This document shows positions 10,999-34,071 of a stretch of 51,953 bases of DNA, in pieces. The notes below the pieces were generated by a model, which was not told where the DNA came from, ran no database searches, and saw only the letters and a program-made list of their open reading frames with translations. Origin of the DNA: Nanobdellota archaeon. GTDB taxonomy: Archaea > Nanobdellota > Nanobdellia > Woesearchaeales > DSVV01. Position 1 is the first letter of the stretch. Each line of letters starts with the position of its first letter. The translations under genes and the position numbers were made by a program. Where the stretch lies: assembly GCA_051819785.1 (NCBI GenBank), contig JBNJGV010000001.1:1-51953 (forward strand), given 5' to 3'.

Positions 10999-11043
10999 TT
11001 TAAATTGCACATGTTGTATTCACAAAAAAATTAATTATTAAAA

Positions 11044-18728: not shown

Positions 18729-18752
18729 CTTGTGTTATTAATCCTTCGCTTT

Positions 18753-19394
18753 ATGTACTATGATGTTGTGTGCCCTAATGGGAATGAAAGAGAATTTATA
18801 GAAATGGCTAAAAGGCTAGGGTATGGTGGTATTTGTTTTCTTTATGAAGAAAAAATTCCTACAAATCAAATTTCAGATGAAAGGGTTGTTATTTTTTCAG
18901 CTGTTATTGCCAGAGATTCACGAAAAGCTGAAAGAAAAGCAGATTTATTTTTTGCAAAAGAAGTAACGAGCATTAGGAATTTAATAGAAAAAGGTTTTTC
19001 AGGTATCATTTTAGGCGCAGAAAACCAAAAAAGAAAGGACTTTATTCATCAAAGAAATTCGGGTGTTGATCATATTATATGTGAGTTTGCAAAAAAAAAA
19101 GGGACGGCTTTTGGCTTTTCTTTTAATGATTTAATAACTCCTCCAGGTTCACGCTTTGTGGGGAGAGTTATTCAAAATATAAGGCTGTTTCAAAAATATA
19201 ATTTAGATGCTGTGATATGTTCTTTGGCCCAAAAACCTTATGAAATGCGCAATCCAAGGGATTTAATTTCTTTGTATGGCTGGCTCGGCTTAATTTCACC
19301 AAAATTAGCTTTGAGCAATCTTGGTAAGCTTGTGAAAACGTATAAGAAAAAAAGCAAGGATAAAATCTCTGAAGGAATTGAGGTGGTTGAGTGA
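18753..19394 (+). CDS. rnp3: RNase P protein component 3 (Rpp30)
   Basis: GVDHIICEFAKKKGTAFGFSF ... RNPRDLISLYGWLG closely matches the conserved C-terminal blocks of archaeal Rpp30 (GIDH..., R-x-PRDLISL). I prefer the ATG at 18753 (MYYDVV) over the GTG at 18732. Confidence 0.8.
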   Translation: MYYDVVCPNGNEREFIEMAKRLGYGGICFLYEEKIPTNQISDERVVIFSAVIARDSRKAERKADLFFAKEVTSIRNLIEKGFSGIILGAENQKRKDFIHQRNSGVDHIICEFAKKKGTAFGFSFNDLITPPGSRFVGRVIQNIRLFQKYNLDAVICSLAQKPYEMRNPRDLISLYGWLGLISPKLALSNLGKLVKTYKKKSKDKISEGIEVVE

Positions 19395-20386
19395 TTATAT
19401 ATAATCTCTCATTGTTTTTTATTGGTCTTTTTTTAGGGATAATTACTTCATATACAGATTATTATTTAGGCAAGATTAGAAATAAACATTTAGCTGTTTC
19501 TTTTTTTTTAATGTTGATAATCATCTTTTTACAATATTTTATTTCTGCTCTTCCAAGAGAAGAGTATGCGTTTTTAGTAATTAATCTTTTATTAACAACT
19601 ATTGCTTCAGTGATGTTATGGATTTTTGGGTTTTGGACTCCAGGGGATGCAAAATTGTTTATTGTTTTTTCCTTTTTACTTTCTAGTATTTTTCCAACCT
19701 CTAAATTTTCCGGTTTAGCTTGCATAAGTTTTTCCTTTTGTGTCTTTATCCCTTTATTTTTAGGTCTTGTATTAATGTCTCTTTTTAAGTTAAGTTTTGA
19801 GGATTTTAAGAAAGGGCTTAAATCGTCTTTAGATAAGAAATTTTTATTTTCAATCCCCGGGGTTTTTATAATTCATTGGTTTTTTTCTTTAGGTGTTCTC
19901 AAGTCTCTTGTTATTATTTTGATTTTGGCGCTTGTTTACTTTTTTTTCAATCGTTTTATTACTTACGCGATACTCTGCCTTGTTTTTTTGAGGTTTTTAT
20001 TAGACAAAGAAATTTTTTCGTTTTTTTATTTGAATTATTTTTTAATATTGATTTTTTTAATTTTTATATTCAGGTTTTTTATATGTGAAATTTTCTTTGA
20101 TGTTTTTTGTAAAGAGACCAAAATTAAGTCACTCAAGAAAGGTATGGTTCCAGCAGAAAAAATTGTTAAAAAAGGTTCAGAATACATCAAAGTGCCTATG
20201 AAAGGGAAGCTTTCAAAATCTTCTGAGTTTTTTAAGCCCCGGCCAGAGGGCTTGAACAGAACAGAAATTCTTAAGTTAAAACGAAACAAATCCGGAATTT
20301 CTTGTATAAAAATTTACAGGACAATTCCTTTTGCACCCTTTATATTTTTAGGGTATTTGTTATTTGTTTTCATCTCAATTAGCTAA
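19391..20386 (+). CDS. Polytopic membrane protein, A24-family type IV prepilin/preflagellin peptidase-like
   Basis: It has multiple TM helices. The first candidate catalytic Asp lies in SYTDYYLGKIRNKHL (D-x5-I-x-N pattern). The second lies in FWTPGDAKLFIVF (G-x-GD-x-KL pattern). The GTG start overlaps the Rpp30 stop. Confidence 0.6.
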   Translation: MIIYNLSLFFIGLFLGIITSYTDYYLGKIRNKHLAVSFFLMLIIIFLQYFISALPREEYAFLVINLLLTTIASVMLWIFGFWTPGDAKLFIVFSFLLSSIFPTSKFSGLACISFSFCVFIPLFLGLVLMSLFKLSFEDFKKGLKSSLDKKFLFSIPGVFIIHWFFSLGVLKSLVIILILALVYFFFNRFITYAILCLVFLRFLLDKEIFSFFYLNYFLILIFLIFIFRFFICEIFFDVFCKETKIKSLKKGMVPAEKIVKKGSEYIKVPMKGKLSKSSEFFKPRPEGLNRTEILKLKRNKSGISCIKIYRTIPFAPFIFLGYLLFVFISIS

Positions 20387-21107: not shown

Positions 21108-21108
21108 T

Positions 21109-22008
21109 TTAATAAAGGAGTTTTATTGTTTTTGCTTTGCATGAAAACACAAAGTTTTTCTTAGAGGGATTTGTGTTTAGTTTATCTTTCATATGCTTGG
21201 CGATTTTTATGTTTTTAATTTTTTGTTTAGTTGGTTCTTCCCTGTTGCCTAGTTTTATGCAGTTTACTCCTACTTTCCAATAATCATATATTGCTCCAAA
21301 AGGGTCTTGGTGGACAGGATACGAAAATATTCTTTTTGCTACGAGGCTGGATTTTTTCTTTTTCTCGGAGAAATGCTGTATTTTTTTAATGTTATCACAT
21401 GCATCAAGTGGGATTTCTCCTTTCCAGAGCTGTTTGTTATACGTGTAAAAACAAAACCCGTCAATATTTCTGCAATAATTTGTTCCAAAAAAAAACACTT
21501 CTGTTTTAATGTCAACCTTTTTTTTAATCTTTTTAATCTCGTCTGGGTAGAGATGTTGTGGAACAACAAATCTTTTTATTCCTCTATTTTTAAAGTAATT
21601 GGCTGCACTTGAGTTTAGGCAAGGCGTGACGCTGCTTAGCGTTAGGTCAGCTTTTAAGTTAATTTTTACTTTTTTAAGGGCTTCAATTAAAACAAGGTCA
21701 GAAATAATAAATCCATCAATTCCAATAGAATCAATTTTTTTAAGAACCTCTATGAATCTTTTTAAAGAAGAGAAAATACATCCAACTTCATTTATTACTA
21801 GGTTAATCTTTTTTTTGTATTTATGGGTTATCTTAATTGCCTTTCCCAATTCCTCTAAGTCTTTTAGGTTCATTGAAGAAGAATTTGGTCTGTGGTTTAT
21901 TGTTGGAAGTTGTTTGGTTTTCAAAAGTCCACAATAAACTTCATCAGCACCATTTTTAATAATGCTTTCTAACTCTTCTAAGTTTGAAAATGCGGCAACT
22001 ATTTGCAT
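21109..22008 (-). CDS. Peptidase U32-family protein (the family now known mainly as Fe-S RNA/quinone hydroxylases)
   Basis: The N-terminus VAAFSNLEELESIIKNGADEVYCGL ... LEELGKAIKITHKYKKKINLVINE follows the U32 consensus (APAG-x-LE-x-L-x-AI-x-GADAVY-x-G ... H-x-x-G-x-K-x-Y-x-x-x-N). Confidence 0.6.
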   Translation of the reverse strand: MQIVAAFSNLEELESIIKNGADEVYCGLLKTKQLPTINHRPNSSSMNLKDLEELGKAIKITHKYKKKINLVINEVGCIFSSLKRFIEVLKKIDSIGIDGFIISDLVLIEALKKVKINLKADLTLSSVTPCLNSSAANYFKNRGIKRFVVPQHLYPDEIKKIKKKVDIKTEVFFFGTNYCRNIDGFCFYTYNKQLWKGEIPLDACDNIKKIQHFSEKKKKSSLVAKRIFSYPVHQDPFGAIYDYWKVGVNCIKLGNREEPTKQKIKNIKIAKHMKDKLNTNPSKKNFVFSCKAKTIKLLY

Positions 22009-22114
22009 AATAGAGGTTATTTACTTGTATATTAAAATATTTTTATCTTTTTTTAAATCAATAAAACGAGGTTATAATCAGTTCTCAAATAATGTGTGAG
22101 GGTTTCTGGCGAAC

Positions 22115-22130
22115 AGAAAAATATATAAAT
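22115..22130 (+). promoter_or_regulatory. BRE/TATA-like promoter element for the His-Xaa-Ser-tailed protein gene
   Basis: AGAAAAATATATAAAT ends 21 nt before the ATG at 22152, which implies a leaderless or near-leaderless mRNA. The identical 16-mer occurs at 40343-40358. Confidence 0.45.
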
Positions 22131-22151
22131 CATCTTATCTATGAAAGGTTT

Positions 22152-22475
22152 ATGGATTTACCCAAGGTTAAAAAAAAAGTTAATGGTTTTCTCTTGAACG
22201 AAGATGGGAAAATATCTAAGCAGGCTGCAGTTACAGTAGGTGGTGCCTTGGGTGTTTTTGTTGGTTCTTCTCTTATAGATTTTAGTTTTGCAGATTCTAT
22301 CAAACATTCACCAAAGGCGGATTGTGATCCTGTAGTAAAAGGTAATAGTGATAGTTCTGGGCATTGTTGGGCGCATAATAATAATATAATTAATGATTTT
22401 AAGCAAGATGCAGTAAAAAGTCAACACCAGCACCATTATAATCATACCAGCCATAGCAGCCATGGCTCCTATTAA
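22152..22475 (+). CDS. Small TM/signal-anchored protein with a C-terminal His-rich His-Xaa-Ser repeat tail (HxsA-like candidate precursor)
   Basis: The 107-aa product from the ATG at 22152 is MDLPKVKKKVNGFLL...AAVTVGGALGVFVGSSLIDF...KSQHQHHYNHTSHSSHGSY. The last 10 residues contain HTS-HSS-HGS. It overlaps the next gene's start by 14 nt. The track start at 22092 lies upstream of the TATA element, so I disfavour it. Confidence 0.5.
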   Translation: MDLPKVKKKVNGFLLNEDGKISKQAAVTVGGALGVFVGSSLIDFSFADSIKHSPKADCDPVVKGNSDSSGHCWAHNNNIINDFKQDAVKSQHQHHYNHTSHSSHGSY

Positions 22476-24234
22476 AAAGGAAAAAGTTAAATACAAAAAC
22501 CAAGGCGTAGCTTTGATGACAAAAAGATTCTTAGATTTGGGCTTGAAAAACAATAATAAAAATTCTTTTTTTGGAAAAGGGAAAAGTCGTAAATTTGATA
22601 ATATTGTTGATGAAATCGAAGGATTTAATTCATGGGATTCTGTTGTAATCTTTGGTAGTGAACCAACTGCAAGAAACGATTTTTTTAAAATTATTTCAAA
22701 ACTTAAGATAAAGGGTATTAACAAAATTTCCCTCATTACAAACGCCCGAGCATTTAATTATTCGAGTTTTGTAGAAAGATTAAGAGGTATAAAAGAATTG
22801 AAGGTTTTTGTTGAGCTCATGGCCCCAACTTTTGAAATGCACGACAAGATTACTGGCACTCCTGGAAGCTTTACACAAACGATAAAAGGCATTGAGAAGT
22901 TGATTGAAAAGGAATTCGATCTTTCATTAATCTTTCCAGTAGTTAAAGATAATTCAGATTTGATTTCAGGGATGGGTGAACTTTCATCTGTTTATGATAT
23001 TAAAAATATAGTTGTTTTTAACCCTCCTGAAAAACTCTTGAATAGATTAATTGATGCTGGCAAGAGGCATCCTCTCTTATTTAGTGTAGTTGGTTTAAAG
23101 CCCGAATTAGTTCGCTCGCCTTTGGATTTTTGTTTAGATCTTACTGATTTGGAAGAACTAGACCTAGAAAATGAGCCTTTTTTAAGAGTTTTAAGAGCAC
23201 TTGAACGCTTTCATAATAATAGCTTGATATATGTTTCACCTGATGAGGTTTATTATATGTTTCATAAATTTTCAAAGGGATATGAATTTCTTGATTTTGC
23301 TCATGATTTTGGATTTCCTGTGCCTGTTTTGATGCACCTGTTTAGGGAGCTTGAAAAGGAAAGAATTGTGACAATTGATGGGAAAAGGATAAAGCTTGAA
23401 ATTGAGCCGTTGGTTATAGAAAATTCAAAAAGTTTTAGAGAACAAAGACTTGAAGAGATTCCTTCTATATGTCAATTGAGAGTTGATGAGGTTGCACTTT
23501 TGAAAAGAGCAGACTTTGTCACAGAAAGGTCCTTAGGGAGCAGCAGGATTGCAATTCTTGGAGACGATGATTTTTTTTCACTGATTCTGGCAAGCAAAAA
23601 GGTTTTTCAGGAGATTTTCGTCTTTGAGCTTGATGAACGGATATGTGAGAAAATCAAAAGTATTGCTGAAAAAGAAAATTATAATATAAGGGTTGTCAAG
23701 CAGGACTTGAGAAAAGAATTCAGTCCCGAACTTATTGGCAAATTTGATGTTTTTTATACTGATTGTCCTTATTCTGTTAATGGCTTTACTCTTTTCTTTT
23801 CCAGGGGGTTGCAGCTATTGAAAAAAGAAAGGAAAAAAAGAGGATTTATGTCTTTTTCACCGAATCTTCCCATTGAGAGTGTAGAGATGGGTGTTCAAAA
23901 AGTGATAAATGATTCCGGAGTTTTTATTGAAAAGAAGCATCTGGGCGCAATTAATGAAATGCCTGATTATATTAGGCAAAAATATGATGATTTTAGTGCC
24001 TTGAAGAAAAATCTTGATGATTATGAAAGCATCCCTCTAGATGATAGTTGGTTTCTCTCAAGTCTGGGAAGAGAAGAGCAGTTGTTTTCTTTTTTGACTA
24101 CAAGTATGACACGCCCCCTGATTAGGGGTAAATTCGACGGCGAAATATATTATGGTGAGAACCCTCTTGCTTATTATACCGATAAAGAAAGCATAAAGAA
24201 AAGCAAATCAGAGAATGACATGTTCAAGTATTAA
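22462..24234 (+). CDS. Fusion: Cys-less (degenerate) radical-SAM-like HxsC-type domain + winged-helix-like linker + BpsA/DUF43 aminopropyltransferase-like domain
   Basis: The N-terminal half aligns with the radical SAM protein at 31124..31957 (VVIFGSEPTA / VVLSGGEPTL, ITNARAFNYS / LSNARAFSNK, HDKITGTPGSFTQTIKGIEKLIEK / HDAMTRTKKSFKQAVTGLKKLISK). Where the partner has KCNNNCLCC this protein has LKNNNKNSFF, and there is no Cys in the first roughly 215 aa. The C-terminal half has ILGDDDFFSLILA and GKFDVFYTDCPYSVNGFTLFFSRG, which match the DUF43/BpsA motifs (GDDDLTS, DPPYT...G...F.SRG). Confidence 0.6.
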   Translation: MAPIKKEKVKYKNQGVALMTKRFLDLGLKNNNKNSFFGKGKSRKFDNIVDEIEGFNSWDSVVIFGSEPTARNDFFKIISKLKIKGINKISLITNARAFNYSSFVERLRGIKELKVFVELMAPTFEMHDKITGTPGSFTQTIKGIEKLIEKEFDLSLIFPVVKDNSDLISGMGELSSVYDIKNIVVFNPPEKLLNRLIDAGKRHPLLFSVVGLKPELVRSPLDFCLDLTDLEELDLENEPFLRVLRALERFHNNSLIYVSPDEVYYMFHKFSKGYEFLDFAHDFGFPVPVLMHLFRELEKERIVTIDGKRIKLEIEPLVIENSKSFREQRLEEIPSICQLRVDEVALLKRADFVTERSLGSSRIAILGDDDFFSLILASKKVFQEIFVFELDERICEKIKSIAEKENYNIRVVKQDLRKEFSPELIGKFDVFYTDCPYSVNGFTLFFSRGLQLLKKERKKRGFMSFSPNLPIESVEMGVQKVINDSGVFIEKKHLGAINEMPDYIRQKYDDFSALKKNLDDYESIPLDDSWFLSSLGREEQLFSFLTTSMTRPLIRGKFDGEIYYGENPLAYYTDKESIKKSKSENDMFKY

Positions 24235-25304
24235 GGTATTATTTCACACCCATTATATTTTGTGTATTCAAAATCATCTATGGAGACTACGCCTTTTTCT
24301 ATCATGTCTTGGATTTTTGGCTTTATTTCAATCAATTTATCTATAAGGTTTTTTACGGTTTCACATACCAGGTTAAAACCCTCCTCGCCCCATGGCTTTG
24401 TAAGGTTTGCGACAAGGCATCTCCCACCGCATAATCCATAATAGCTACATGAAGTACAAGGGGTTTTTACAAACAAGGAGTTTTCTAATTCAAAGGGTGT
24501 TTTTTGGAAGATTGTTCCTAGGATGAAATCTTTATCTCTTAGATTTGTGCAAGGGGCAATTGATCCATCGGTAAGTATATTAAAAAAGTTTCTTCCTGCG
24601 CCACATCGAAGCAAAGTATTTTGTTCTTTTATAATATTCTGCATGACTCCAATAAATGGATAAATTTTTTTCACATTCCCTCTTTCAATTTTTTCTAACC
24701 ATTCATCTACAAGCTTTCTTATTCCTGGGTTATATTTTTCATAAACCCATTTTTCTGGATTTTTCCATGTCTCTTTATCAAAAAAGCACATGTTAAGTTG
24801 CCAGTGAATAGAATCAAAAATTCCTACCCTTAATAGGTGATTAACTTGTTTATGTATGTCTGTTTTTTCATCAATTGTCATCCTTGCTATTAATTCACCT
24901 TCGAAGCCGTTTTGTTTTATCTGTTTTGCATTATTTATGACGGATTTGTAAGTTCCTATTCCTCTGTAATAATCCGTTAATATCTCGTCACCATCTATGG
25001 AAATGAGTATGGTATGCAACCTATTGATATAATTTCTTTTTATTTCTTTTAGAAGAATGCCATTTGTCTGTAGCATAAATTTTTTCGCATGTACACAATC
25101 CATTATTTTTTTGATTTGATTCTTGTTAATGAGGGGTTCTCCTCCATAAAAAGTAATATTGCACTCAGCGTCTTTTTCAAGGAATGATTTAAGATCTTCT
25201 AGATTATATGACGGGAAAAAAGGAAATCTTCTCCTTACTTTGTTATCTGCACAATATTTGCATTTCAGATTACAATTCATGGTTGTAAATATATTATAAT
25301 TCAT
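24231..25304 (-). CDS. Radical SAM enzyme with C-terminal SPASM-type Cys-rich domain (peptide-maturase-like)
   Basis: The CX3CX2C motif is at TMNCNLKCKYC, followed by FYGGEPL and QTNG. The C-terminal Cys cluster is CGAGRN...APC...CTSCSYYGLCGGRC. Confidence 0.85.
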   Translation of the reverse strand: MNYNIFTTMNCNLKCKYCADNKVRRRFPFFPSYNLEDLKSFLEKDAECNITFYGGEPLINKNQIKKIMDCVHAKKFMLQTNGILLKEIKRNYINRLHTILISIDGDEILTDYYRGIGTYKSVINNAKQIKQNGFEGELIARMTIDEKTDIHKQVNHLLRVGIFDSIHWQLNMCFFDKETWKNPEKWVYEKYNPGIRKLVDEWLEKIERGNVKKIYPFIGVMQNIIKEQNTLLRCGAGRNFFNILTDGSIAPCTNLRDKDFILGTIFQKTPFELENSLFVKTPCTSCSYYGLCGGRCLVANLTKPWGEEGFNLVCETVKNLIDKLIEIKPKIQDMIEKGVVSIDDFEYTKYNGCEIIP

Positions 25305-25347: not shown

Positions 25348-26946
25348 ATGAAAAAATCATTCCTGAAAGTTTGTGATAAAAGCAATAATAAAAACACCTT
25401 TTTTGAAAATAACAGCATCTTATCTTTTAAAGATATATGTGAAAGCCATAATGTTGTAATATGCGGGGGAGAACCCACCTTGTTTTCGGGGTTTTTCAAT
25501 CTGATATCTAAATTATCTGGTTGCAGGAGCATTTCTGTGATAACAAATGCAAGGGCTTTTTCTTATTCTTGGTTTTCCAGAAAAATTGATGGCAATTCTT
25601 TTAATGCCTATGTTGAAATTCTTTCTTACGATGAATCTAGGCATGATTCACTTACGGGAACTCCTGGAAGCTTTAAGCAAACTATTGAAGGCGCCAGAAA
25701 TCTCTTAGATTCATCAATACAGCTCAACTTTGTAATGCCTTTTATTGGACAGGATAAAAACGAGATTATATTAACTAAAAAATTAGCTCATGACCTGGGA
25801 GCAAAAAGATTTGTGATTAAGAATTGCACCAATCGTAATTATCCTCCTTTTTTCTTCAAGGAGCTTTCAGACGATTTCCCTTTTGATATTGAAGCAATAG
25901 ATTTTGAAGATTTTAATTTGCCTTCCAAAATGAAATTATGTTTTGAAATTCAGGATCTTAACCTGATAACTGGCTCTACAAGAATAAAATTATTGAGGAT
26001 AATTAGGGATTTGATTTATCCAGTCCCTTTTTCTAATCCTGATGATCTTTATAATTGTTTTCATAATATAAATGAATCCATATTGGATTCAAGCGAAAAG
26101 ACTGGTCTGGGAATAGAGTCCATTTATGATATAAATTCTCTCGTTAAAAGGGAAGGGCTGGTTCAATTGCCTCAACCACCCTGTATAGGCAAATTGCCGG
26201 GCCCGGAATCTGATAATAATCCCAATCTTTGCCAATTGAGCCTTAATAAAGAACATTTAATGCATAGATTAAATTATCTTTTGAAAATAATGGTTCCAGG
26301 AAGCGATCTGGTTTTATTGGGTGATGAAGATAATATTTCAATTGAACTTGCCAAGACAGGGCACTTCAAATCAATTACTGTTTTTGAGTATGATTCTGAT
26401 ACAGTCAAAGAATTAAAAAAAAAAGGGAAAGATTACCCAATATTTGTTTATGAGCATGATTTGAGGAAAAAAATTCCTTGTAAATTTAATGGTGTTTTTG
26501 CTTATATGTATTGCGCACCCCCTCATAATCCTGAAGGGTTTAGGCTTTTTGTTTCAAGAGGCGTTAAGCTGCTAAGGGGTGTGTTTGCAAAAAAGGCCTT
26601 TGTTTCTTTTGACATGTCTTTTTTAGATAAGGCCCATGAAATAAAAATCAATAAGATTATAAACGAGATGGGCTTGTTATCAAAAAATATTGGTCTTGAA
26701 TGTGTGCCTGAATTTCCTAAATATTTGCATAGAAGGTACTCTGACCCTAAATATTTACGTGGTGCAATAACTGATCCCTTTCATATCAATAAGAATGATT
26801 TATGGCATTTATCAAAGACCGGAAGAGCTGAATCATGCTTTGAACTAATTGTTCCGACCGATTGCAAGCCGGCAGTTGAATCTGATATACATGAAAATGT
26901 ATGCTATGATGAAGATATTTTTGAAAAACTTAGTTATTTGGAATGA
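25348..26946 (+). CDS. Second fusion paralog: degenerate radical-SAM-like domain + BpsA/DUF43-like domain
   Basis: CGGEPTL, ITNARAFSYS and HDSLTGTPGSFKQTIEGARNLL are retained. The cluster-binding site reads VCDKSNNKNTFF, with no CX3CX2C. The C-terminal half has VLLGDEDNISIELA and FAYMYCAPPHNPEGFRLFVSRG (DUF43-like with an altered DPPYT). Confidence 0.6.
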   Translation: MKKSFLKVCDKSNNKNTFFENNSILSFKDICESHNVVICGGEPTLFSGFFNLISKLSGCRSISVITNARAFSYSWFSRKIDGNSFNAYVEILSYDESRHDSLTGTPGSFKQTIEGARNLLDSSIQLNFVMPFIGQDKNEIILTKKLAHDLGAKRFVIKNCTNRNYPPFFFKELSDDFPFDIEAIDFEDFNLPSKMKLCFEIQDLNLITGSTRIKLLRIIRDLIYPVPFSNPDDLYNCFHNINESILDSSEKTGLGIESIYDINSLVKREGLVQLPQPPCIGKLPGPESDNNPNLCQLSLNKEHLMHRLNYLLKIMVPGSDLVLLGDEDNISIELAKTGHFKSITVFEYDSDTVKELKKKGKDYPIFVYEHDLRKKIPCKFNGVFAYMYCAPPHNPEGFRLFVSRGVKLLRGVFAKKAFVSFDMSFLDKAHEIKINKIINEMGLLSKNIGLECVPEFPKYLHRRYSDPKYLRGAITDPFHINKNDLWHLSKTGRAESCFELIVPTDCKPAVESDIHENVCYDEDIFEKLSYLE

Positions 26947-26983: not shown

Positions 26984-28009
26984 ATGAAAAATAGGTTTCT
27001 TGAAAAAGCAATGACCAAAAATGAAATACGTGTATTTAATCATGTTGTTTTCAACAATTTTCTTGATATCTCAGAATTGAGGGCTGAATTTAAGGAGTCT
27101 TTGGAAAATCTTGAAAAAAAAGGTATTTTGATAAAGAAAAATAATTTTTATTTTTTAGATAATCCTTCAAAGGTTTTTAAAAACCTAAATAAGATTCTTA
27201 AAAACAGTTCAATCGATAAGATAATAGATGAAAAGACAACCCACCAACATATTGAAGTGACAAAAATGGGCGATGAGTTTCTCTTAGAATTAAACAGTAA
27301 CCCGCAGGTTTGTTCTATTGATGAAGAAGAATATCACTTTTGTATTGGAACTGTTCCATGTTGCTTAGCAAAAAAATTAAATCGTGTTCTTATTCTTGGG
27401 GGTGGTGATCTTTTAGCTGCACGCAATGTCTTGCAATTTAATGAAGTTGATGAAGTTATTCTTGTTGAACTTGATAAAAGGATACTTGATATTTTTTGTA
27501 ATTTGAATTTTCTTGCTGATTGTAACAAGTTTGCTTTTTCTGATTCCAGATTGAAAATAATTAACGGGGATGCATTTAAATGGCTAAATGAGGACAGTGG
27601 GAATTTTGATGTAATTATTTATGACTGTGAAGAAACGTTTACTAATCAGGGTGAAGAATTCAACATGGTTTCATACCTTGGGTTTTATGAACTGATGTTT
27701 AATAAATTGTCAGAGGGTGGGATACTCACCTTTAATTGTTCCAATGATCCTGAAGAAGAAGAATATTTTGATTATATGTTTGAAAAAAATATCAAAAAAA
27801 ATCTCCCTACCCATATTAGTAATATTATTGAAAAGAAAAAAAAGATGCATCAAAAACAATGGCTGTTGCATAAATTTAATCACAAGAATGTTGTGCGCAT
27901 CGACCTGACTTCACCTGTTGTAGGGTTCCATTCAAATTGGTATTTTTCTAATGAAAAAATAACCCAAAGGCGTGGGAATCAATCCTTAGATAATTTTTTC
28001 ATAAGATAA
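26984..28009 (+). CDS. Spermidine-synthase-fold (aminopropyl/methyl-transferase class I) protein with an N-terminal wHTH-like domain
   Basis: RVLILGGGDLLAARNVLQFNEVDEVILVELDKRILD and NGDAFKWL...FDVIIYD follow the SpeE pattern (GGGDGG ... E-x-D ... GD-x-x-x-[FW]L ... [FY]DVII-x-D). Confidence 0.55.
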   Translation: MKNRFLEKAMTKNEIRVFNHVVFNNFLDISELRAEFKESLENLEKKGILIKKNNFYFLDNPSKVFKNLNKILKNSSIDKIIDEKTTHQHIEVTKMGDEFLLELNSNPQVCSIDEEEYHFCIGTVPCCLAKKLNRVLILGGGDLLAARNVLQFNEVDEVILVELDKRILDIFCNLNFLADCNKFAFSDSRLKIINGDAFKWLNEDSGNFDVIIYDCEETFTNQGEEFNMVSYLGFYELMFNKLSEGGILTFNCSNDPEEEEYFDYMFEKNIKKNLPTHISNIIEKKKKMHQKQWLLHKFNHKNVVRIDLTSPVVGFHSNWYFSNEKITQRRGNQSLDNFFIR

Positions 28010-29007
28010 AGGCAGTTTTCTTGCCCTGCATGCCTATCAAAGGTGCCCGTCTTTACTAATTTATCTGATACTGCAATTAACCTGCAACCTCCTTTGCATA
28101 TATTAAAATATTCACATGAAGCGCAGGGTTCTTTTATCTTGTCAAAATTAATCAAGTTGTTTTTTATATTGATGTTTTTACCATCGAAATTTCCTATGCT
28201 GAACTCATCTACTGCTGACATACAAGGACAAGGGAAAATTTTCATATCCTCCAGACGTATTGCAATATGATTTTTGCCTGCATTGCAATAATGGTTCTTA
28301 AGAGGAGGTGCGAAAAACCAGCATTTTCTTTTATTTTCAGGGTTGTCTGGACCCCAGATTGAATCCAACTCAATAGTAAATGAATATTTTCCATAGTTTT
28401 CTTTTATTTTTTTATATATCTCATATCTTTCTTTTCCGGTTAAAATAGAATCTTCTCCAAGATTTTTTTTGGCATTTCCTGAATAGCATAATGGGATGAG
28501 CTCAACAAAATTAATAGGTAGGTTTTTCTCAGCGAAATCAAGCATATCTTTAATGTGGTTTTTGTTTTTTTTGTTTACTACGAAGTTTACACCGATAGTT
28601 TGTATATGGTCTCTGTGGCTTTTTTTTATGTAATTGACAATCTTGTTGAAATCATTTTTGCCACTTGAATATTTATGCAGTTTTTGATTATGTCCATGAA
28701 GGCTTATGACAATATTTGTCTTAAGTGAGTTCATGTATCTCAAGTCTTTCTCATCCGGAGAAAATTCTGGATTGATGTTAAGCCATTCGGGGTTGCTTCT
28801 TTCAAATTGCTTTGTTTTTCTAAATATTTCTATGGATTCATGATTTATATTAAAATCAAACAGATGAACAAAGTATCCTTGTTTTTTTAGAATCTTGACT
28901 ATTTGGGAGATCTTTTTGTATCCAACCGGAGAAGACCCTCCATAACAGCAAATATTGCAGTTACGTTGGCAATTCTTGTGAACAAGAGTAATTGTTTTAA
29001 TTTCCAT
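27979..29007 (-). CDS. Radical SAM enzyme with SPASM-like C-terminal Cys cluster
   Basis: The CX3CX2C motif is at KNCQRNCNICC. The C-terminal Cys cluster is CNAGKNH...FPCPC...EPCASCEYFNICKGGCRL. Its 3' end overlaps the convergent gene by 31 nt. Confidence 0.8.
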   Translation of the reverse strand: MEIKTITLVHKNCQRNCNICCYGGSSPVGYKKISQIVKILKKQGYFVHLFDFNINHESIEIFRKTKQFERSNPEWLNINPEFSPDEKDLRYMNSLKTNIVISLHGHNQKLHKYSSGKNDFNKIVNYIKKSHRDHIQTIGVNFVVNKKNKNHIKDMLDFAEKNLPINFVELIPLCYSGNAKKNLGEDSILTGKERYEIYKKIKENYGKYSFTIELDSIWGPDNPENKRKCWFFAPPLKNHYCNAGKNHIAIRLEDMKIFPCPCMSAVDEFSIGNFDGKNINIKNNLINFDKIKEPCASCEYFNICKGGCRLIAVSDKLVKTGTFDRHAGQENCLYLMKKLSKD

Positions 29008-29052
29008 TTTTTTTCGAAAAGTATTAATATTATATTAAATTTTAGGAGGCGT

Positions 29053-30180
29053 ATGGAAAAAAAACTTTTTGATTTTCAGGCATTGCTTGATAATTTCTCT
29101 GTGCTTGATAAAAAGTGGGACATTTCTTTAAAGAGTGTAGATGACCTTTCAAAGGTTAAAGTTACAAAAAGAAATGATATACATAGGTTCTCAATTAATT
29201 CTTGCCCTGAAAAACCAGTTTATGTTATGAATACCTCGGGAACTCTTGGGACGCCCACGTTATTTTTCATTTCAAAGGGTGCCTATGAAACACATATAAA
29301 AAGGGTTGAAACCATGTTCAAAATATCCGGATACAATCCGCATGAAGTTGTAGTTAACATGACAGAAGACCCAATTGCAAATAGTGCTTTTGTTCGTGGC
29401 GGGCATACATTTATTCATACTGGAATGCTGATTGAACAAAACGCAGAAATAATTGCCCAGAAGATTTTACAGACGAGACCCACTTATATGTATACATATC
29501 TTTCATTGGCATATGATTTATTCAAGATGATAAATAAGAAAGGTGTTGTGAAAAATATCGTTGGTGTTGGTTCTCTTGTTACTAAAGACTTTAAAAATTC
29601 TATTAAGGAGCTTACTGGTGCAGATTTTAAGATGATGTATGGGACACAGGAGTTTGGTGCTCTTGGCATCCAGGAAAATGAAGATGACGAATATTATTCT
29701 CTGATTGATGATGGTCTTTATACTGAGGTCATGAATAAATCTGGTGAAATCTCCGAAAACGGTAGTGGGGCTCTTCTTATTACAGATTACAATAATTTTT
29801 CATCGCCTTTTATAAGATATTTTGTAGGTGATGAAGTTGAGCTGATGAGAAAAGATGGCAAAACTTATCTTAAAGTTTTAGGCAGATGTGATAATTTTAT
29901 AAAACTCCAAGGGGATGTCGATTCAAAGGAAGGCATAATTTCAATTATGCAAGGTATTCTAAAACATGATAATTTTTTGATAGAGGTTACAAATGATACT
30001 GGATTAAATGACTATATGACCATTTTAGTACCTTCAAAGGATTTAGAAAAAAGAAAACTTATTTCAGAAAAAATGATGGAGTTTTACCAAGTACCTTGTG
30101 TTGTTAAAGCTTTAAATTCTCCTGTACCAAAGACACAATCTGGTAAAAGAATTAATATCAATGATAAACGATTTAGCTAG
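29053..30180 (+). CDS. Adenylate-forming ligase, PaaK/CapK/F390-synthetase-like
   Basis: MNTSGTLGTPTLFF matches the AMP-binding motif (SSGTTGKPT). LKVLGRCDNFIKLQGDV matches the GR-x-DD-x-I-x-x-x-G block. I prefer the ATG at 29053, preceded by AGGAGG at 29044-29049. The track start at 28903 would overlap the divergent radical SAM gene. Confidence 0.6.
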   Translation: MEKKLFDFQALLDNFSVLDKKWDISLKSVDDLSKVKVTKRNDIHRFSINSCPEKPVYVMNTSGTLGTPTLFFISKGAYETHIKRVETMFKISGYNPHEVVVNMTEDPIANSAFVRGGHTFIHTGMLIEQNAEIIAQKILQTRPTYMYTYLSLAYDLFKMINKKGVVKNIVGVGSLVTKDFKNSIKELTGADFKMMYGTQEFGALGIQENEDDEYYSLIDDGLYTEVMNKSGEISENGSGALLITDYNNFSSPFIRYFVGDEVELMRKDGKTYLKVLGRCDNFIKLQGDVDSKEGIISIMQGILKHDNFLIEVTNDTGLNDYMTILVPSKDLEKRKLISEKMMEFYQVPCVVKALNSPVPKTQSGKRININDKRFS

Positions 30181-30193
30181 TTTTTTCTATATT

Positions 30194-31084
30194 TCAAATT
30201 GTTTCATTACATTTTTCTTTGATTATATTTTTATATCTTAAATAATCTTGTTTTGTTATTGTTTCGCATATTTCAGAATCAGGGGAGGGTAATGACCCAC
30301 ACATACTGGCATTACCTGTTTTGAAAGCATTAAAAAAAACAGAAATCTCTATACATGTGTTATAATTATTAAAATCATCATTGCTTTTGAAGTAATCACA
30401 ATATGTTGTGTTTTTTTCTGATATTGCTTTGCAATATGTTTTAGGAACTGCTTCCATGGAATCGCAGCTTGTTTTTTTTTTAAATAATAATTTACAAAGG
30501 CTCTTTTGTTCTTCTTTTCCAATTTTATTACACAATTTCTCGTCTTTATCTTTAAGCGCTTTTGAAGAGAAATAGACTGCTTTACAATAATCTTTTTCTT
30601 CTTTATTATCAATTTTATTGCAAAAATCAGGGTTGTTTTCAAATAGGGCAATAATAATAGGATCTTTATTCTCTTCATAACACTTCTGGATTTCCTCTTC
30701 AACAAACCTTTTGTTCCTTTCTCTGGTAAGTTCGTCCATTTCTTCATTTGTTAATTTTGTTTCTTTCTCTTCATTTATTTCTTCTTTCTCTTCAGGTGTA
30801 TCTTCTGTTGTGTCTGTGTTATTAGGTTCTTCTGAGTTAATTAGTAATAAAAACATTCCGACAATTAAAAGAACAATCATAATGACTGCAAAAATATATA
30901 CTTTGCCTGTATTATGTATTTTGTATTTTTCTTGCTGAAGGGGTTGATTTTTCTCGGCCTCTTTAAAGGCAAAATTAATTTTTTCTTTGTTATATCCTGC
31001 CTCAACTAGAATTTTTGTAATTTTTTCATCAGAGAAGCCCCTTTGCTTTTCTCTTAAGATATAGTTGGCTAATTGTTCGACCAT
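30194..31084 (-). CDS. Single-pass membrane protein with acidic linker and Cys-rich extracytoplasmic domain (hypothetical)
   Basis: The N-terminal soluble segment is ANYILREKQRGFSDEKITKILVEAGYNKEKI, and the TM helix is VYIFAVIMIVLLIVGMFLLLI. About 16 Cys follow in recurring C-[NK]-K-[IA] / K-x-x-C spacing. Confidence 0.5.
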   Translation of the reverse strand: MVEQLANYILREKQRGFSDEKITKILVEAGYNKEKINFAFKEAEKNQPLQQEKYKIHNTGKVYIFAVIMIVLLIVGMFLLLINSEEPNNTDTTEDTPEEKEEINEEKETKLTNEEMDELTRERNKRFVEEEIQKCYEENKDPIIIALFENNPDFCNKIDNKEEKDYCKAVYFSSKALKDKDEKLCNKIGKEEQKSLCKLLFKKKTSCDSMEAVPKTYCKAISEKNTTYCDYFKSNDDFNNYNTCIEISVFFNAFKTGNASMCGSLPSPDSEICETITKQDYLRYKNIIKEKCNETI

Positions 31085-31123: not shown

Positions 31124-31957
31124 TTACTTTACGGTGGTTGTAAAAGGTACGGGTTTTTCTCCTGAATGCTCAATGTAACCTTTCCAGAAACCGCAGCATT
31201 TTGATTTTTTTTCACACCTCCTGCATTCATTTGGGAAATATATGTCTTCTTCAGGCGCAGTTTTTCCTTTGGTATGCTTATGAAGTTCTTTTGGAAGAAA
31301 ACAAAGCGGCAGGTGTAAAATTATAGGCTTTATATTAGTTTTTTTTATAACCTTTGTTGCATTTTTTATTGGTTCTATTGTTTTTTTATAGCTAATAAAC
31401 AAATTGTTAATGTTACTTAATGCTTCACCATCAATTTTCATTTGTATAAATACAATCCTTTTAGCACCCTGAAACTCTTTTTTTATAAATTGAGAAATCT
31501 TTTCAAGTTTACTATAGTTAAGTTTTGTTATTATTATTCGTACTTCTGCGTTATATCCTTTAGATATTAGTTTTTTTAATCCAGTAACGGCTTGTTTGAA
31601 GCTTTTTTTGGTTCTAGTCATAGCATCATGTTCTGGCTCATTATCTGAATAAAGAGCTGTTGCTATTATGAATCTTTCTTTATTAATATTACAAGATTCA
31701 AATTTTTCAAAGAAATTTTTGTTTGAGAAAGCCCTTGCATTGCTGAGTATTAACCCAGATGAACCTGAATTATTAACGTCTTTTATTGCTTTGAAGAAAT
31801 TTTTAGAAAGCGTAGGTTCTCCACCCGAAAGAACAACCATCTTTTCTTTATCTTTTATTTTTGGGTAACTATCTCTTACTTCTTTTTCTCTTAACTTTTT
31901 CTCGGCAACACAGCATAGGCAGTTGTTATTGCATTTTGTTGTAAGTGTAATATGCAT
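31124..31957 (-). CDS. Radical SAM enzyme, HxsC-like (second maturase of a His-Xaa-Ser-type pair)
   Basis: The CX3CX2C motif is at TTKCNNNCLCC, with GGEPTL and NARAF blocks. The C-terminal Cys cluster is CRRCEKKSKCCGFW. It lies immediately downstream of the HxsB-like gene. Confidence 0.5.
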   Translation of the reverse strand: MHITLTTKCNNNCLCCVAEKKLREKEVRDSYPKIKDKEKMVVLSGGEPTLSKNFFKAIKDVNNSGSSGLILSNARAFSNKNFFEKFESCNINKERFIIATALYSDNEPEHDAMTRTKKSFKQAVTGLKKLISKGYNAEVRIIITKLNYSKLEKISQFIKKEFQGAKRIVFIQMKIDGEALSNINNLFISYKKTIEPIKNATKVIKKTNIKPIILHLPLCFLPKELHKHTKGKTAPEEDIYFPNECRRCEKKSKCCGFWKGYIEHSGEKPVPFTTTVK

Positions 31958-31988
31958 CTACATCACTTTGTGCTATGTTCTGTAAAGA

Positions 31989-33392
31989 TTAATCATAAAA
32001 TTTTATCCATTTTTCAAACACTTCTTTAGCAGACTCATCAAAAAGATATTTTTCAAAAATATAATCAAATTGTGCTTTAAATATCTGGCAATATGTTGTT
32101 TGTGGAACGTTTGCAACAATGCTGCCCTGTTCTGCGTAGTTAACTACTGGACAAAGCCCACAATATGGTTTATAGGGGCAATACTCACATATATCTGTGT
32201 CGTTAATTGATGAGGATATCAAAGAAGTACTTTCTTCGCAAGAAATAACTTCTTTAAATTTTTGATTCTTGACTGACCCAATTTTAAAAATCTCTTCTTC
32301 GAACATTCTCCCTTCATCACAGCAAAAAATGTCTCCTTTATGATTATATGCCATCTGACCGATGACTGCGCCACAGGGGCTTCGCATATCAAGAAACCCT
32401 GGGTCAACTTTCTGTAAAATCTTTTGAAGAATAATTGTTGTTCCTCTTTCTCTGAAAAAGATACCTTCTTTATTCTTTTTTATTATGTAATCAAGGCTTT
32501 TTTTCCAAAACTTAATAAACTCCTCAGGTGAATATTCTATCTTATCCTTGTTTTTATTTGCGTAACCCAACTTGTTAAAATATCTTAAATGAATTCCTTT
32601 TAATCCAAGGCCAAGATATTCATCTATGATTTCTTTAGGATATTTAATTGATTCTTTTGTAATTGTAACAAGAGCGTTCATTTGTGCATTTAGTTCTTTT
32701 TTTTTGTATTCTTGCTGGATTTTTTTAATCCAGCCCGTTACCAACTCATGGCTGGATTTTTTATATGGTCTGTTAAAGTCATGGAGTTTTTTTGGCCCAT
32801 CTAAGGAGGTACATATATCAATCTGATTTTTTATGCAGTATTCAAGTATTTCATCAGTCATTTTTGTAAGATTGGTAACCATAACAAAACGAAGATTCTT
32901 GTTATATTTTTTATTCACATTCTTGGCATAGTTTGTAATTTTTTTTATTATTTCGAAATTTAATAAAGGCTCTCCCCCCTGGAATTCTATTGTTACTTGT
33001 TTAGAAGGGCTCTGGAAAATATAATCAACTGTTTGTTCAGCTGTTTTCTCGTCCATATCGTAGCCTTTAGCATCTTTTTGAGTAGAAGAAGTCTGACAAT
33101 ATAGGCATTTTTGATTGCATCTTAATGTTATCGCTACAATGTGAAGAGAAGTGCCCTGCCTGAGAAAATTATATCTTGTATTATAATCGTTTTTTATTTC
33201 TTCTTTGTTGTTTTTTGTTAGAATTATCCCCTTTGATTCGAGTTTTTTGAAAAGGTTTTCTTCTTTAATGTTATCATACTGGAGATGTTCAAACTCTTCT
33301 TTGTTCAAAGCAATCCAATTGCCATGACTTGTTGTTACAAGATATTTGTCATTTATCTTTTTGAATCTGAAAGGATTTATAAGGTATTTCAT
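31989..33392 (-). CDS. Radical SAM/SPASM enzyme, HxsB-like
   Basis: 467 aa. The N-terminal PFRFKKINDKYLVTTSHGNWIALNKEEFEHL resembles the HxsB leader-binding-type N-terminus. The CX3CX2C motif is at LRCNQKCLYC, with FQGGEPLL. The SPASM-like tail is CGA...CCDEGR...CEYCPYKPYCGLCPV. Confidence 0.6.
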   Translation of the reverse strand: MKYLINPFRFKKINDKYLVTTSHGNWIALNKEEFEHLQYDNIKEENLFKKLESKGIILTKNNKEEIKNDYNTRYNFLRQGTSLHIVAITLRCNQKCLYCQTSSTQKDAKGYDMDEKTAEQTVDYIFQSPSKQVTIEFQGGEPLLNFEIIKKITNYAKNVNKKYNKNLRFVMVTNLTKMTDEILEYCIKNQIDICTSLDGPKKLHDFNRPYKKSSHELVTGWIKKIQQEYKKKELNAQMNALVTITKESIKYPKEIIDEYLGLGLKGIHLRYFNKLGYANKNKDKIEYSPEEFIKFWKKSLDYIIKKNKEGIFFRERGTTIILQKILQKVDPGFLDMRSPCGAVIGQMAYNHKGDIFCCDEGRMFEEEIFKIGSVKNQKFKEVISCEESTSLISSSINDTDICEYCPYKPYCGLCPVVNYAEQGSIVANVPQTTYCQIFKAQFDYIFEKYLFDESAKEVFEKWIKFYD

Positions 33393-33598
33393 TTTAGTAT
33401 TTTGGTCATTCCAAGCGTATAATTTTTGAACTCTTTAATTGTTTCTTCGGGGTTTTCTCTTTTGGTTTTCAGTTTAACTTTATGGGTTTCTTTATCTTCT
33501 TTTAAGTCCCCTTCGACAAAATCTTTAAAATCATTAATGGCTGCAAGGATTGCGTTTTTAGAGTATAATTCCTTTTCGAACCTAACTGTTTTCTCCAT
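33389..33598 (-). CDS. HxsD-like small protein, short paralog (69 aa)
   Basis: VRFEKELYSKNAILAAINDF...IKEFKNYTLGM aligns with the neighbouring 139-aa protein (FLDKELYPKDVLHTTAYVF...SKEFKNQLINYAHHM). Its stop overlaps the HxsB-like start (ATGA). Confidence 0.4.
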   Translation of the reverse strand: MEKTVRFEKELYSKNAILAAINDFKDFVEGDLKEDKETHKVKLKTKRENPEETIKEFKNYTLGMTKILK

Positions 33599-34001
33599 TT
33601 TTGTTATATTTTTCCTCCCACGGGACGAGAATTCCTTCAGGGTCTTCTATATCATCTTCCTGCTCAAAGTCGAATTCAAAACTCTCCTCTTCGTTATCGA
33701 TAAAATTGTATGCGAAAATCTCTTGGAGAAGCTTTTTCTTAACTTCTTTGTTTTTTTCATTCATTTGCATATGGTGGGCATAATTTATTAGTTGGTTTTT
33801 GAATTCTTTTGAAAGTTGTTTTGCGTCTTTGTTGTTTTTTGGCTCGAGTTCAACGATAATTTCGTTATCTTTACCCTTTTTCAAAAAGATATAGGCCTTT
33901 TCAAGGAAAACATATGCTGTTGTGTGAAGCACATCTTTTGGGTAGAGCTCTTTGTCAAGAAAGATTTCAACCTTTTCTTTCTCTGAGTTGGTCTTTTCCA
34001 T
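33582..34001 (-). CDS. HxsD-like small protein with acidic C-terminal tail (139 aa)
   Basis: EFKNQLINYAHHMQMNEKNKEVKKKLLQEIF resembles the LLNDYxLRE-type motif region that defines HxsD. I prefer the ATG at 34001 (MEKTNSEKEK) over the TTG at 34022. Confidence 0.4.
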   Translation of the reverse strand: MEKTNSEKEKVEIFLDKELYPKDVLHTTAYVFLEKAYIFLKKGKDNEIIVELEPKNNKDAKQLSKEFKNQLINYAHHMQMNEKNKEVKKKLLQEIFAYNFIDNEEESFEFDFEQEDDIEDPEGILVPWEEKYNKNGENS

Positions 34002-34071
34002 ACTTGCTTTGACTGGGGGCAAGATATTTAAATGTTACTAATCTTTCTAAAATGCAAATCCAGTAAAAAGC

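Follow-up and report, generated by a model that had tools for sequence, protein, structure and literature searches.

The operon at 31124-34001 on the minus strand of the DNA analysed here, a stretch of 51,953 nucleotides from a Nanobdellota archaeon that we call the window, probably belongs to a DPANN/CPR-type variant of the system that matures His-Xaa-Ser (Hxs) proteins. The variant is widespread and not an oddity of this genome; it is partly annotated already by NCBI models, and yet it is unstudied. An earlier note on the same DNA had read the locus as an Hxs-type operon in an archaeon with two unequal HxsD paralogs. That reading is supported by our analysis, and the features that the note flagged as odd turn out to be the norm for the lineage. 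The host, a Woesearchaeota-like DPANN organism with a tiny genome, is indeed an archaeon, since the window encodes an MCM protein with an archaeal winged helix and the RNase P subunit p30.

Four minus-strand genes make up the operon, with the sizes and order described earlier and confirmed by the list of open reading frames. HxsD (33582..34001) comes first; its reading frame, 33582-34022, gives 146 aa from a TTG and 139 aa from the ATG at 34001. It shares 17 nt (33582-33598) with the gene for a short HxsD paralog of 69 aa, called HxsD-like (33389..33598), which in turn overlaps by the 4 nt ATGA with the gene for HxsB (31989..33392), a radical SAM/SPASM maturase of 467 aa with its CX3CX2C motif at residue 92. 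Both overlaps are as noted before; between HxsB and the fourth gene there is a 31-nt gap and no overlap. The fourth gene (31124..31957) encodes an HxsC-like protein, a short radical SAM enzyme of 277 aa with CX3CX2C at residue 9. It is followed on the same strand, 39 nt downstream and with no T-run between, by the gene for a 296-aa membrane protein with a Cys-rich outer domain (30194..31084), which is a possible fifth member of the operon. A tRNA scan found none.

In favour of an assignment to the Hxs system, HxsB scores 490.4 bits against the NCBIfam model TIGR03978 (cut-off 370) and covers profile positions 2-466 of 466. HxsD passes the canonical model TIGR03976 only just, with 53.6 bits for a cut-off of 50, and HxsD-like reaches 67.3 bits against NF038315 (cut-off 41). 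The HxsC-like protein, at 178.8 bits, does not reach the cut-off of 267.9 set for TIGR03977, whereas a canonical HxsC used as a control scored 381.5 bits. The earlier note had proposed to give up the Hxs reading if the proteins fell below the trusted cut-offs of these models and matched generic SPASM maturases best, or if the small reading frames were not conserved; a score below the cut-off applies to HxsC and not to HxsB or HxsD, and both small proteins are conserved in dozens of loci, above curated cut-offs. That the locus consists of generic anSME-like SPASM/radical-SAM enzymes beside chance small reading frames, with no Hxs system at all, has practically no probability left and can be considered already refuted: HxsB does match many SPASM families, and the low HxsC score would suit such a reading, but the next-best family for HxsB stands at 152 bits, far from its full-length match to TIGR03978, and the conservation of the small proteins is at odds with chance.

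The HxsC-like protein lacks the N-terminal domain of about 110 aa found in canonical HxsC. Six canonical HxsC proteins are 378-405 aa long and have their CX3CX2C at 108-130; a short HxsC subfamily of 283-289 aa scores 164-208 bits with TIGR03977. The window protein is not HxsC4 either, with 77.6 bits against NF038332 for a cut-off of 500. The idea that HxsD-like could be the detached N-terminal domain of canonical HxsC was rejected because the hhalign probability is 0.1%.

The two small proteins are true paralogs, as had been proposed (hhalign probability 97.5%, E 7e-12 over 73 columns), and HxsD itself aligns with canonical HxsD at a probability of 98.9%. The short paralog ends after its EFxNYxL motif, just past the shared EFxN, which agrees with the earlier description; among 42 homologs Y12, E56, F57, N59 and L62 are nearly invariant. 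The acidic tail reported for the long paralog, whose C-terminus is DPEGILVPWEEKY, is present, but it is a family trait and not a peculiarity of this genome. In the family the tail ends in a conserved DPxGI-x-PWEEKY, and a PWEEKY-type motif occurs in 19/30 archaeal and 11/14 bacterial variant HxsD proteins and in 0/5 canonical ones. The AlphaFold2 model of HxsD (pLDDT 85.7) has a beta-alpha-beta-beta-alpha core, two long helices and the acidic linker. The HxsD profile matched no sequence in the PDB, and since the Foldseek matches of both models, the best being Pcc1 and Rpb11/RpoL, are non-significant (E >= 0.016), the likeness to Pcc1/Rpb11 is taken as resemblance only.

A protein of 69 aa that is translationally coupled to HxsB and carries a conserved C-terminal motif might also be looked upon as the precursor peptide of HxsB instead of an accessory protein. 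We regard this as very unlikely, given that the protein is homologous to HxsD, lacks a His/Ser/Cys-rich core, and is modelled as a confident, compact domain (pLDDT 96.4), a beta-alpha-beta-beta-alpha two-layer sandwich. Moreover, in three genomes, our own on contig C58 and those of two congeners, HxsB carries HxsD-like as a fused N-terminal domain, an arrangement that fits a domain partner and not a released product, and in 23/38 archaeal loci a separate, leader-bearing precursor gene comes directly after HxsB.

About 20 relatives from the host's order have conserved the cassette of HxsD, HxsD-like and HxsB, and in the synteny comparison the position between HxsD and HxsB is likewise occupied by HxsD-like. 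An HxsB-centred census found the variant across DPANN archaea, CPR bacteria, Omnitrophota, Elusimicrobia and Myxococcota. The core cassette itself is present in nearly all of the loci that were compared, among DPANN archaea as well as among bacteria of the CPR, Omnitrophota and Myxococcota. From more than 568 public loci the best 80 were used, 38 archaeal and 40 bacterial ones being scored; when its position was judged strictly, HxsD-like counted as present in 26/38 and 24/40 of them, respectively. The gene of an A24 (prepilin-type) peptidase lies immediately upstream of HxsD in 22/38 archaeal loci. A strict pairing of HxsD with HxsC, as in E. coli, misfits these loci because 22/38 have HxsD and no HxsC-like gene within about 6 kb. 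A GenBank protein, MBW2979898.1, is already named "HxsD-like protein [Candidatus Woesearchaeota archaeon]" through PGAP naming, and a second HxsD/HxsD-like-HxsB module is present on another contig of the same genome. The HxsD pair is thus no product of rearrangement or of tandem duplication at this locus, as had been suggested, but part of a conserved cassette with an NCBIfam model of its own. In one locus of the same genus (L016) the genes are rearranged with respect to the surface-protein gene next to them. In the window, HxsD would come to lie directly after the A24 gene if the segment 20.4-34.0 kb were turned round in one inversion; this is unsupported, as AT-rich chance pairs alone were found when inverted repeats were sought at the two boundaries.

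The phylogeny of HxsB bears on where the operon came from. The archaeal HxsB proteins form a single clade (SH-aLRT 100) apart from the canonical clade, and the window copy falls beside copies of the same genus, within its own genus and family. Its identity is 33-35% to canonical HxsB and 40-61% to DPANN copies, and HxsB is found above the cut-off in 19/61 genomes of the order. The recent horizontal acquisition suggested earlier is therefore not supported. In its full form, this explanation would have a canonical bacterial HXS antiphage system (HxsD-HxsB-HxsC-HxsA) recently acquired and then rearranged; it could draw on the plasmid-borne, mobile nature of the canonical systems and on HxsB and HxsD scoring above the canonical cut-offs. 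It is extremely unlikely, and largely refuted, in view of the tree, the identities and the spread through the order, as well as the lack of a TIGR03979 HxsA, the HxsC score below the cut-off, and the gene content: six canonical loci have neither HxsD-like nor the leader-type precursor nor the A24 gene.

As for the substrate, the operon had been described as having no adjacent repeat protein. This is literally true, and a genome-wide search for TIGR03979 HxsA (genome 88% complete) found nothing at E <= 1; however, it is misleading because a putative HxsA3/A4-type precursor lies in the same window, about 9 kb off, in the reading frame 22092-22475. Precursors were located by a regular expression together with a leader HMM built from relatives and from the genome's own copies on contigs C7 and C22. 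The window precursor is 107 aa long from the second ATG (22152..22475, plus strand). It combines the conserved leader (MDLPKVKKKVNGFLLNEDGKISKQ) with a hydrophobic segment and with a core whose last residues are HTSHSSHGSY, and it has three terminal H-x-S triplets only. It matches the leader HMM with 57 bits (E 1.3e-15); the match of the C7 precursor (E 1e-22) is partly circular, since C7 is among the seeds. The curated models are less receptive: with NF038309 (HxsA3) the window precursor gets 26.4 bits, on the leader, where 65 are required, and the C7 precursor gets 46.2 bits with NF038313 (HxsA4), whose cut-off of 55 is passed by the precursor of locus L022 with 96 bits. In L022 and L030 the gene directly after HxsB encodes a precursor with long SHGSHS repeats; in L026 such a gene lies about 1.5 kb downstream. 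The genome itself holds three leader-bearing precursors, one in the window and two others, with His-Xaa-Ser repeats, on other contigs. Judged by leader and core, a substrate gene probably does exist, with a candidate precursor in the window and others elsewhere in the genome.

The Cys-rich 296-aa protein has also to be weighed as the substrate, in the slot that HxsA takes in the canonical D-B-C-A order. Its strand, the short gap and the missing T-run would agree with this, a full-length homolog follows HxsB in another locus (L020), and Cys-containing substrates are frequent for SPASM enzymes. On the other hand, homologs among about 100 loci amount to the one in L020 (blastp) and weak phmmer matches in L080 and L102, and the protein, for which no family match was found, has neither an H-x-S motif nor an Hxs-type leader; Cys-rich surface proteins are, besides, common in this genome (34118-46604). 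We consider this proposal unlikely and weakly supported, and take the leader-bearing protein as the better candidate.

A second distant part is a divergent homolog of A24 membrane peptidases (prepilin-type, GxGD aspartyl), 331 aa, at 19391..20386 on the plus strand. It is 26-33% identical (blastp) to the family whose genes immediately precede HxsD in other archaeal loci, and in an alignment of this family that includes the window protein D23, N31, D86, K88 and L89 are invariant and G85 nearly so. Of the family, 19/21 members match PF01478 and 17/21 Arc_PepC; the window protein itself matches only Arc_PepC (E 0.072), so Pfam alone does not recognise it. The family profile gave only spurious membrane-protein matches in the PDB. 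A separate, canonical A24 peptidase is encoded elsewhere in the genome (C6:877-1230), which leaves the divergent Hxs-linked copies free to be dedicated to Hxs. From its sequence, the 19391-20386 protein is likely a dedicated leader peptidase. The leader of the precursor has no textbook class III cleavage site. The window also has a pilin-like operon, a possible alternative client of the A24 peptidase.

Between the precursor and the maturase operon there are about 9 kb of extra tailoring genes, which might belong to a different pathway. On the plus strand, two of them (22462-24234 and 25348-26946) each encode an HxsC-like domain without CX3CX2C fused to a BpsA_C aminopropyltransferase-like module; a SpeE-like transferase (26984-28009) and a PaaK-like ligase (28903-30180) follow. 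On the minus strand are a TIGR04084 rSAM/SPASM enzyme (24231-25304) and a further rSAM/SPASM enzyme (27979-29007).

We propose that the conserved core of the variant is HxsD, HxsD-like and HxsB, to which the window adds the short HxsC-like enzyme. The two small beta-alpha-beta-beta-alpha proteins would serve as non-catalytic adaptors for HxsB, with HxsD-like probably its closest partner because it is translationally coupled to HxsB here and fused to it in the paralogous module. The adaptors would bring a ribosomally made precursor, with its conserved N-terminal leader, hydrophobic anchor and His/Ser-rich C-terminal core, to the radical-SAM enzymes, which would alter the H-x-S region. The A24 prepilin-type peptidase would then cut off the leader at the membrane, and the modified product may remain at the cell surface or outside it. 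The parts of such a pathway would, in this genome, be dispersed over the operon, the precursor gene and the peptidase homolog. By analogy with the E. coli HXS system, the role may be that of an antiviral surface barrier. A bolder version, tentative and on balance doubtful, would have HxsD and HxsD-like form a heterodimeric, Pcc1/Rpb11-like adaptor, a kind of RiPP substrate-presenting element unrelated to PqqD-type RREs, with the DPxGI-PWEEKY peptide docking the radical-SAM enzymes in turn onto the membrane-anchored His/Ser-rich precursor. Cleavage by the dedicated prepilin-type peptidase would then yield a modified protein at the surface of DPANN archaea, which would shield them as a barrier that is antiviral or binds metal.

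The Hxs system has a large sister variant with parts of its own, namely a second HxsD paralog, an HxsD tail motif and leader-bearing, membrane-anchored precursors, to which the archaeal variant adds a probably dedicated prepilin-type peptidase. Its simpler three-protein modules could help in working out the radical reactions and what HxsD does in them. Modified, His/Ser-rich proteins on the surface may also serve ultra-small archaea as a defence against viruses.

Among the closest known systems is the canonical HXS of Pseudomonadota with the genes HxsD-HxsB-HxsC-HxsA, which was recognised as an antiphage defence only in 2026 (Li et al., Nat Commun 2026, PMC13128918). In that study HxsA homologs were counted among bacteria, with 99.7% of the systems in Pseudomonadota; in E. 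coli, the N-terminal processing and export of HxsA requires HxsB, HxsC and HxsD, and HxsD binds a radical-SAM partner (PMC13128918). The archaeal operon shares with it the SPASM radical-SAM enzyme HxsB and a small HxsD, both above the canonical cut-offs, a second radical-SAM enzyme of the HxsC type, and, as predicted on the archaeal side, a His-Xaa-Ser substrate that is N-terminally processed and bound for outside the cytoplasm. It differs in the extra HxsD-like protein between HxsD and HxsB, in the acidic linker and PWEEKY tail of HxsD, and in an HxsC of 277 aa, not about 400, that lacks the N-terminal domain and scores below the cut-off. A TIGR03979 HxsA and a peptidoglycan-binding domain are both absent here; instead, the precursor has a conserved leader and a hydrophobic anchor, a likely dedicated A24 peptidase is associated with the system, the canonical gene order is not kept, and the host is a DPANN archaeon.

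The NCBIfam families HxsD-like, HxsA3, HxsA4 and HxsC4 exist as annotation models only; the 69-aa protein belongs to NF038315 and the precursors of relatives reach HxsA4, whereas the window and C7 precursors are below the cut-offs and the HxsC-like protein is not HxsC4. Among the papers searched, none describes the variant, and PADLOC, which in version 2.0 has no Hxs model, returned generic viperin-like radical-SAM matches only. With the FlaK/PibD/EppA prepilin peptidases (PF01478 with Arc_PepC) the Hxs-linked membrane proteins share two catalytic-motif aspartates, D23 and G-D86-x-K-L, but they are a divergent paralogous family that sits beside HxsD and not beside pilin genes, and the leader of their presumed substrate lacks the usual [KR]-G cleavage context. 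A PqqD-type RRE is, like HxsD-like, a small non-catalytic protein adjoining or N-terminally fused to a SPASM peptide maturase; among the 50 PDB matches that Foldseek listed for each of the two small-protein models, none is of the PqqD type, and in place of the winged helix of the RREs both AlphaFold2 models predict a beta-alpha-beta-beta-alpha sandwich.

The earlier note had described a four-gene, Hxs-like operon on the minus strand of an archaeal contig, and this description was confirmed in its ORFs and overlaps. The genes are, in order, HxsD (33582-34022; 146 aa from a TTG start, or 139 aa from the ATG at 34001), its short paralog HxsD-like (33389-33598, 69 aa), the SPASM radical-SAM enzyme HxsB (31989-33392, 467 aa) and an HxsC-like protein (31124-31957, 277 aa). 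The first two ORFs overlap by 17 nt, HxsD-like and HxsB by a 4-nt ATGA, and a 31-nt gap separates HxsB from the HxsC-like gene; a fifth same-strand ORF, for a 296-aa Cys-rich membrane protein (30194-31084), begins 39 nt further on, and no T-run is found in either gap. In searches with the NCBIfam models, HxsB (TIGR03978, 490.4 bits, cut-off 370), HxsD (TIGR03976, 53.6 bits, cut-off 50) and HxsD-like (NF038315, 67.3 bits, cut-off 41) exceeded their cut-offs, but the HxsC-like protein, with 178.8 bits on TIGR03977, remained below that of 267.9. Two genes mark the window as archaeal, one for RNase P p30 and one for an MCM whose winged helix is of the archaeal type; the genome (1.44 Mb, 96 contigs, 88% complete) has its nearest public relatives among Candidatus Woesearchaeota / Nanoarchaeota MAGs.

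The two small proteins are paralogs, as the earlier note had it. Their profiles align over 73 columns with a probability of 97.5% and an E-value of 7e-12 (hhalign), the HxsD-like profile matches canonical HxsD with a probability of 95%, and the AlphaFold2 models have a common beta-alpha-beta-beta-alpha core. The model of HxsD-like has a pLDDT of 96.4; that of HxsD (85.7) is extended by two long helices, an acidic linker that is disordered and a short helix at the end. The pair does not, however, represent a rearrangement, as had been thought, because it is the rule among relatives. Of 61 genomes from the order to which this one belongs, 19 encode an HxsB above the cut-off, and about 20 loci retrieved from these all have HxsD ahead of HxsB, with a 68-85-aa ORF ending EFxNYxL between the two in all but L021 and L025; the suggested comparison of synteny in related MAGs thus finds the cassette in nearly every locus. 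One genome per species was then scanned more broadly, giving >568 HxsB relatives. Among the best 80, counted with HMMs built from relatives and strict positional rules, HxsD was found in 30 of 38 archaeal and 30 of 40 bacterial loci, and HxsD-like in 26 and 24, respectively, the bacterial sources including Parcubacteria/Paceibacterota, Omnitrophota, Elusimicrobia and Myxococcota. One such protein (GenBank MBW2979898.1) is already named "HxsD-like protein [Candidatus Woesearchaeota archaeon]". The acidic tail of the long HxsD, which ends in DPEGILVPWEEKY, is present as noted but is hardly peculiar to this locus: the tail motif occurs in 19/30 archaeal and 11/14 bacterial HxsD of the variant, and in 0/5 canonical ones. 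The canonical HxsD of Adhaeribacter (L116:3555-3917) and Leptospira (L117:3547-3930) end in SDPVGF; as this resembles the DPxGI of the variant tail, a docking peptide at the C-terminus may predate the variant.

The HxsC-like protein differs from canonical HxsC, which has 378-405 aa and its CX3CX2C motif at residues 108-130; here the motif lies at residue 9, and the first 28 positions of the TIGR03977 profile are not covered. A truncated pseudogene was ruled out, since only 31 nt lie upstream of the gene. The protein belongs to a subfamily of 283-289 aa whose TIGR03977 scores range over 162-208 bits, against 381.5 for a canonical control. Its members come from Iainarchaeota, Omnitrophota, Paceibacterota and another archaeon, and in locus L047 the subfamily also forms the N-terminal half of a longer protein, of 570 aa. 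In other DPANN loci, the radical-SAM genes right after HxsB are HxsC4-like and also below the cut-off. No HxsC-like gene lies within ~6 kb in 22 of the 38 archaeal loci; the minimal archaeal system therefore consists of an A24 prepilin-type peptidase, HxsD, HxsD-like, HxsB and a precursor.

As for the precursor, the earlier note saw no adjacent repeat protein, and TIGR03979 HxsA is indeed absent from the 88% complete genome, but the window does carry a leader-bearing precursor. In relatives, a small gene immediately downstream of HxsB encodes a conserved leader ([DL]-[FILM]-P-K-L-K-K-K-x3-F-L-L-x-E-E-G-K-I-S-K-Q), a hydrophobic segment and a variable, His/Ser/Gly-rich core with an aromatic final residue. 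L022, L026 and L030 have a long SHGSHS repeat as their core, and the L022 precursor scores 96 bits on NF038313 (HxsA4, cut-off 55). We built a leader HMM from ten relatives' leaders plus two copies on contigs C7 and C22 of the same genome, first found by an H-x-S regex scan, and ran it against a six-frame translation of the genome. It has three full members there: the C7 (1481-1771, E 1e-22, seven overlapping H-x-S) and C22 (E 2e-21) copies, both seeds, and the window ORF at 22092-22475 (E 1.3e-15), the only independent match, which likely starts at the second ATG, 22152, and ends in ...HQHHYNHTSHSSHGSY with three H-x-S triplets. On C7 (L011:440-2170), the precursor adjoins a different rSAM/SPASM gene with an in-frame TAG. 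After it come another leader copy, now degenerate (~1807-1995), and a fragment of an rSAM gene, so that the whole resembles a satellite locus in decay or one that was mis-assembled. The C22 precursor (L012:4340-4690) is an orphan amid apparent housekeeping genes and extends into a gap of Ns, its His-Xaa-Ser repeat having probably broken the assembly.

An A24-like membrane protein gene stands immediately upstream of HxsD in 22/38 archaeal and 0/40 bacterial loci among the same best 80 of >568. With D23, N31, D86, K88 and L89 unchanged throughout its alignment and G85 almost so, this family reads as a divergent A24 prepilin-type peptidase; PF01478 matches 19/21 members and Arc_PepC 17/21. The window homolog (19391-20386) has 26-33% identity to family members and is not recognized by PF01478 on its own. 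Because a canonical A24 gene is found elsewhere in the genome (C6:877-1230, 58 bits), the window copy and another on contig C58 can be dedicated to Hxs. An RNase P p30-like gene overlaps the A24-like start by 4 nt (18732-20386); such a gene is likewise found immediately ahead of the A24 gene in L027, and five more relatives have one close to their Hxs loci, a conserved synteny. A 242-aa protein and a U32 peptidase (20379-22008) are encoded in the interval from the A24-like gene to the precursor. Their families are neighbours in the bacterial Hxs locus L081 too (10725-12410), an adjacency suggesting that both are part of an extended system.

The interval from precursor to operon is occupied by genes for two fusions of an HxsC-like domain without CX3CX2C to a BpsA_C aminopropyltransferase-like module, for two rSAM/SPASM enzymes, one of them of the TIGR04084 family (357.5 bits, cut-off 225), and for a SpeE-like transferase, a PaaK-like ligase and the Cys-rich membrane protein. 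In L016, a locus from the same genus, plus-strand HxsD, HxsD-like and HxsB are followed by a convergent precursor and a homolog of the 1001-aa surface protein encoded in the window. Precursor and HxsB are convergent in the window as well, but, compared with L016, ~9 kb of genes are inserted and the block in its entirety has the opposite orientation with respect to the surface-protein gene; no inverted repeats were found at its boundaries in the window.

The second module, on the 7-kb contig C58 (L013:3978-7152), has an A24-like gene, a 197-aa HxsD with a very acidic tail, and a single ORF fusing HxsD-like (independent E-value 1e-17) to HxsB (631 bits), a fusion also found in two congeners. A histidine-kinase-like gene follows, and this contig has no HxsC or precursor. 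In a quick maximum-likelihood HxsB tree (108 sequences, including the best 80 of >568 loci; LG+C20, SH-aLRT), a branch with a support of 100 sets all archaeal rows apart, in a clade of 38 labelled and 22 unlabelled rows (21 of the latter from relatives of this genome), while canonical plasmid HxsB forms a separate clade among the bacterial rows. Window HxsB clusters with copies from its own genus and family (61% identity to L016), so the horizontal acquisition from bacteria raised earlier is not supported as a recent event on these sequences. Direction of any ancient inter-domain transfer is not fixed by the tree, the outgroup branch being very long (6.6). C58 HxsB sits in another archaeal subclade, and the two modules are thus old paralogs. 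Some submitter labels look unreliable ("uncultured Methanosarcinales", and "Saccharibacteria" from one MAG series). One Aminicenantes-labelled contig is nested within the archaeal clade (L075, JAFCCF010000004.1); with its archaeal-type cassette, A24 gene included, it is either mis-binned or an archaea-to-bacteria transfer.

In E. coli, HxsA needs HxsB, HxsC and HxsD, all three, in order to be processed at its N-terminus, modified by +8 Da and exported, and HxsD binds a radical-SAM partner (PMC13128918). By analogy with this and from the gene anatomy here, a four-step mechanism can be proposed. HxsD and HxsD-like would act as non-catalytic adaptors of HxsB, HxsD-like, which shares an ATGA with HxsB here and is fused to it on C58, probably being the closer of the two; together they may offer the precursor, leader included, to the radical-SAM enzymes; the H-x-S core would then be modified, and the leader cleaved at the membrane by the A24 paralog. 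The predicted folds of both small proteins are not PqqD-like; they resemble the small dimerising subunits Pcc1 and Rpb11/RpoL at non-significant levels (Foldseek, E 0.016-0.05, TM 0.46-0.62).

The 2026 HXS paper mentions archaea nowhere (0 occurrences; PMC13128918), and a full-text literature search found no paper on the DPANN/CPR-type variant; NCBIfam models already cover its parts (HxsD-like, HxsA3, HxsA4 and HxsC4). The window operon is real, one more member of this unstudied variant, and the traits flagged as peculiar in it are typical of the variant. All six canonical plasmid loci compared (Paraburkholderia, Aeromonas, Adhaeribacter, Leptospira, Calothrix and Methylobacter) differ from it in having a single HxsD without a separate HxsD-like gene.
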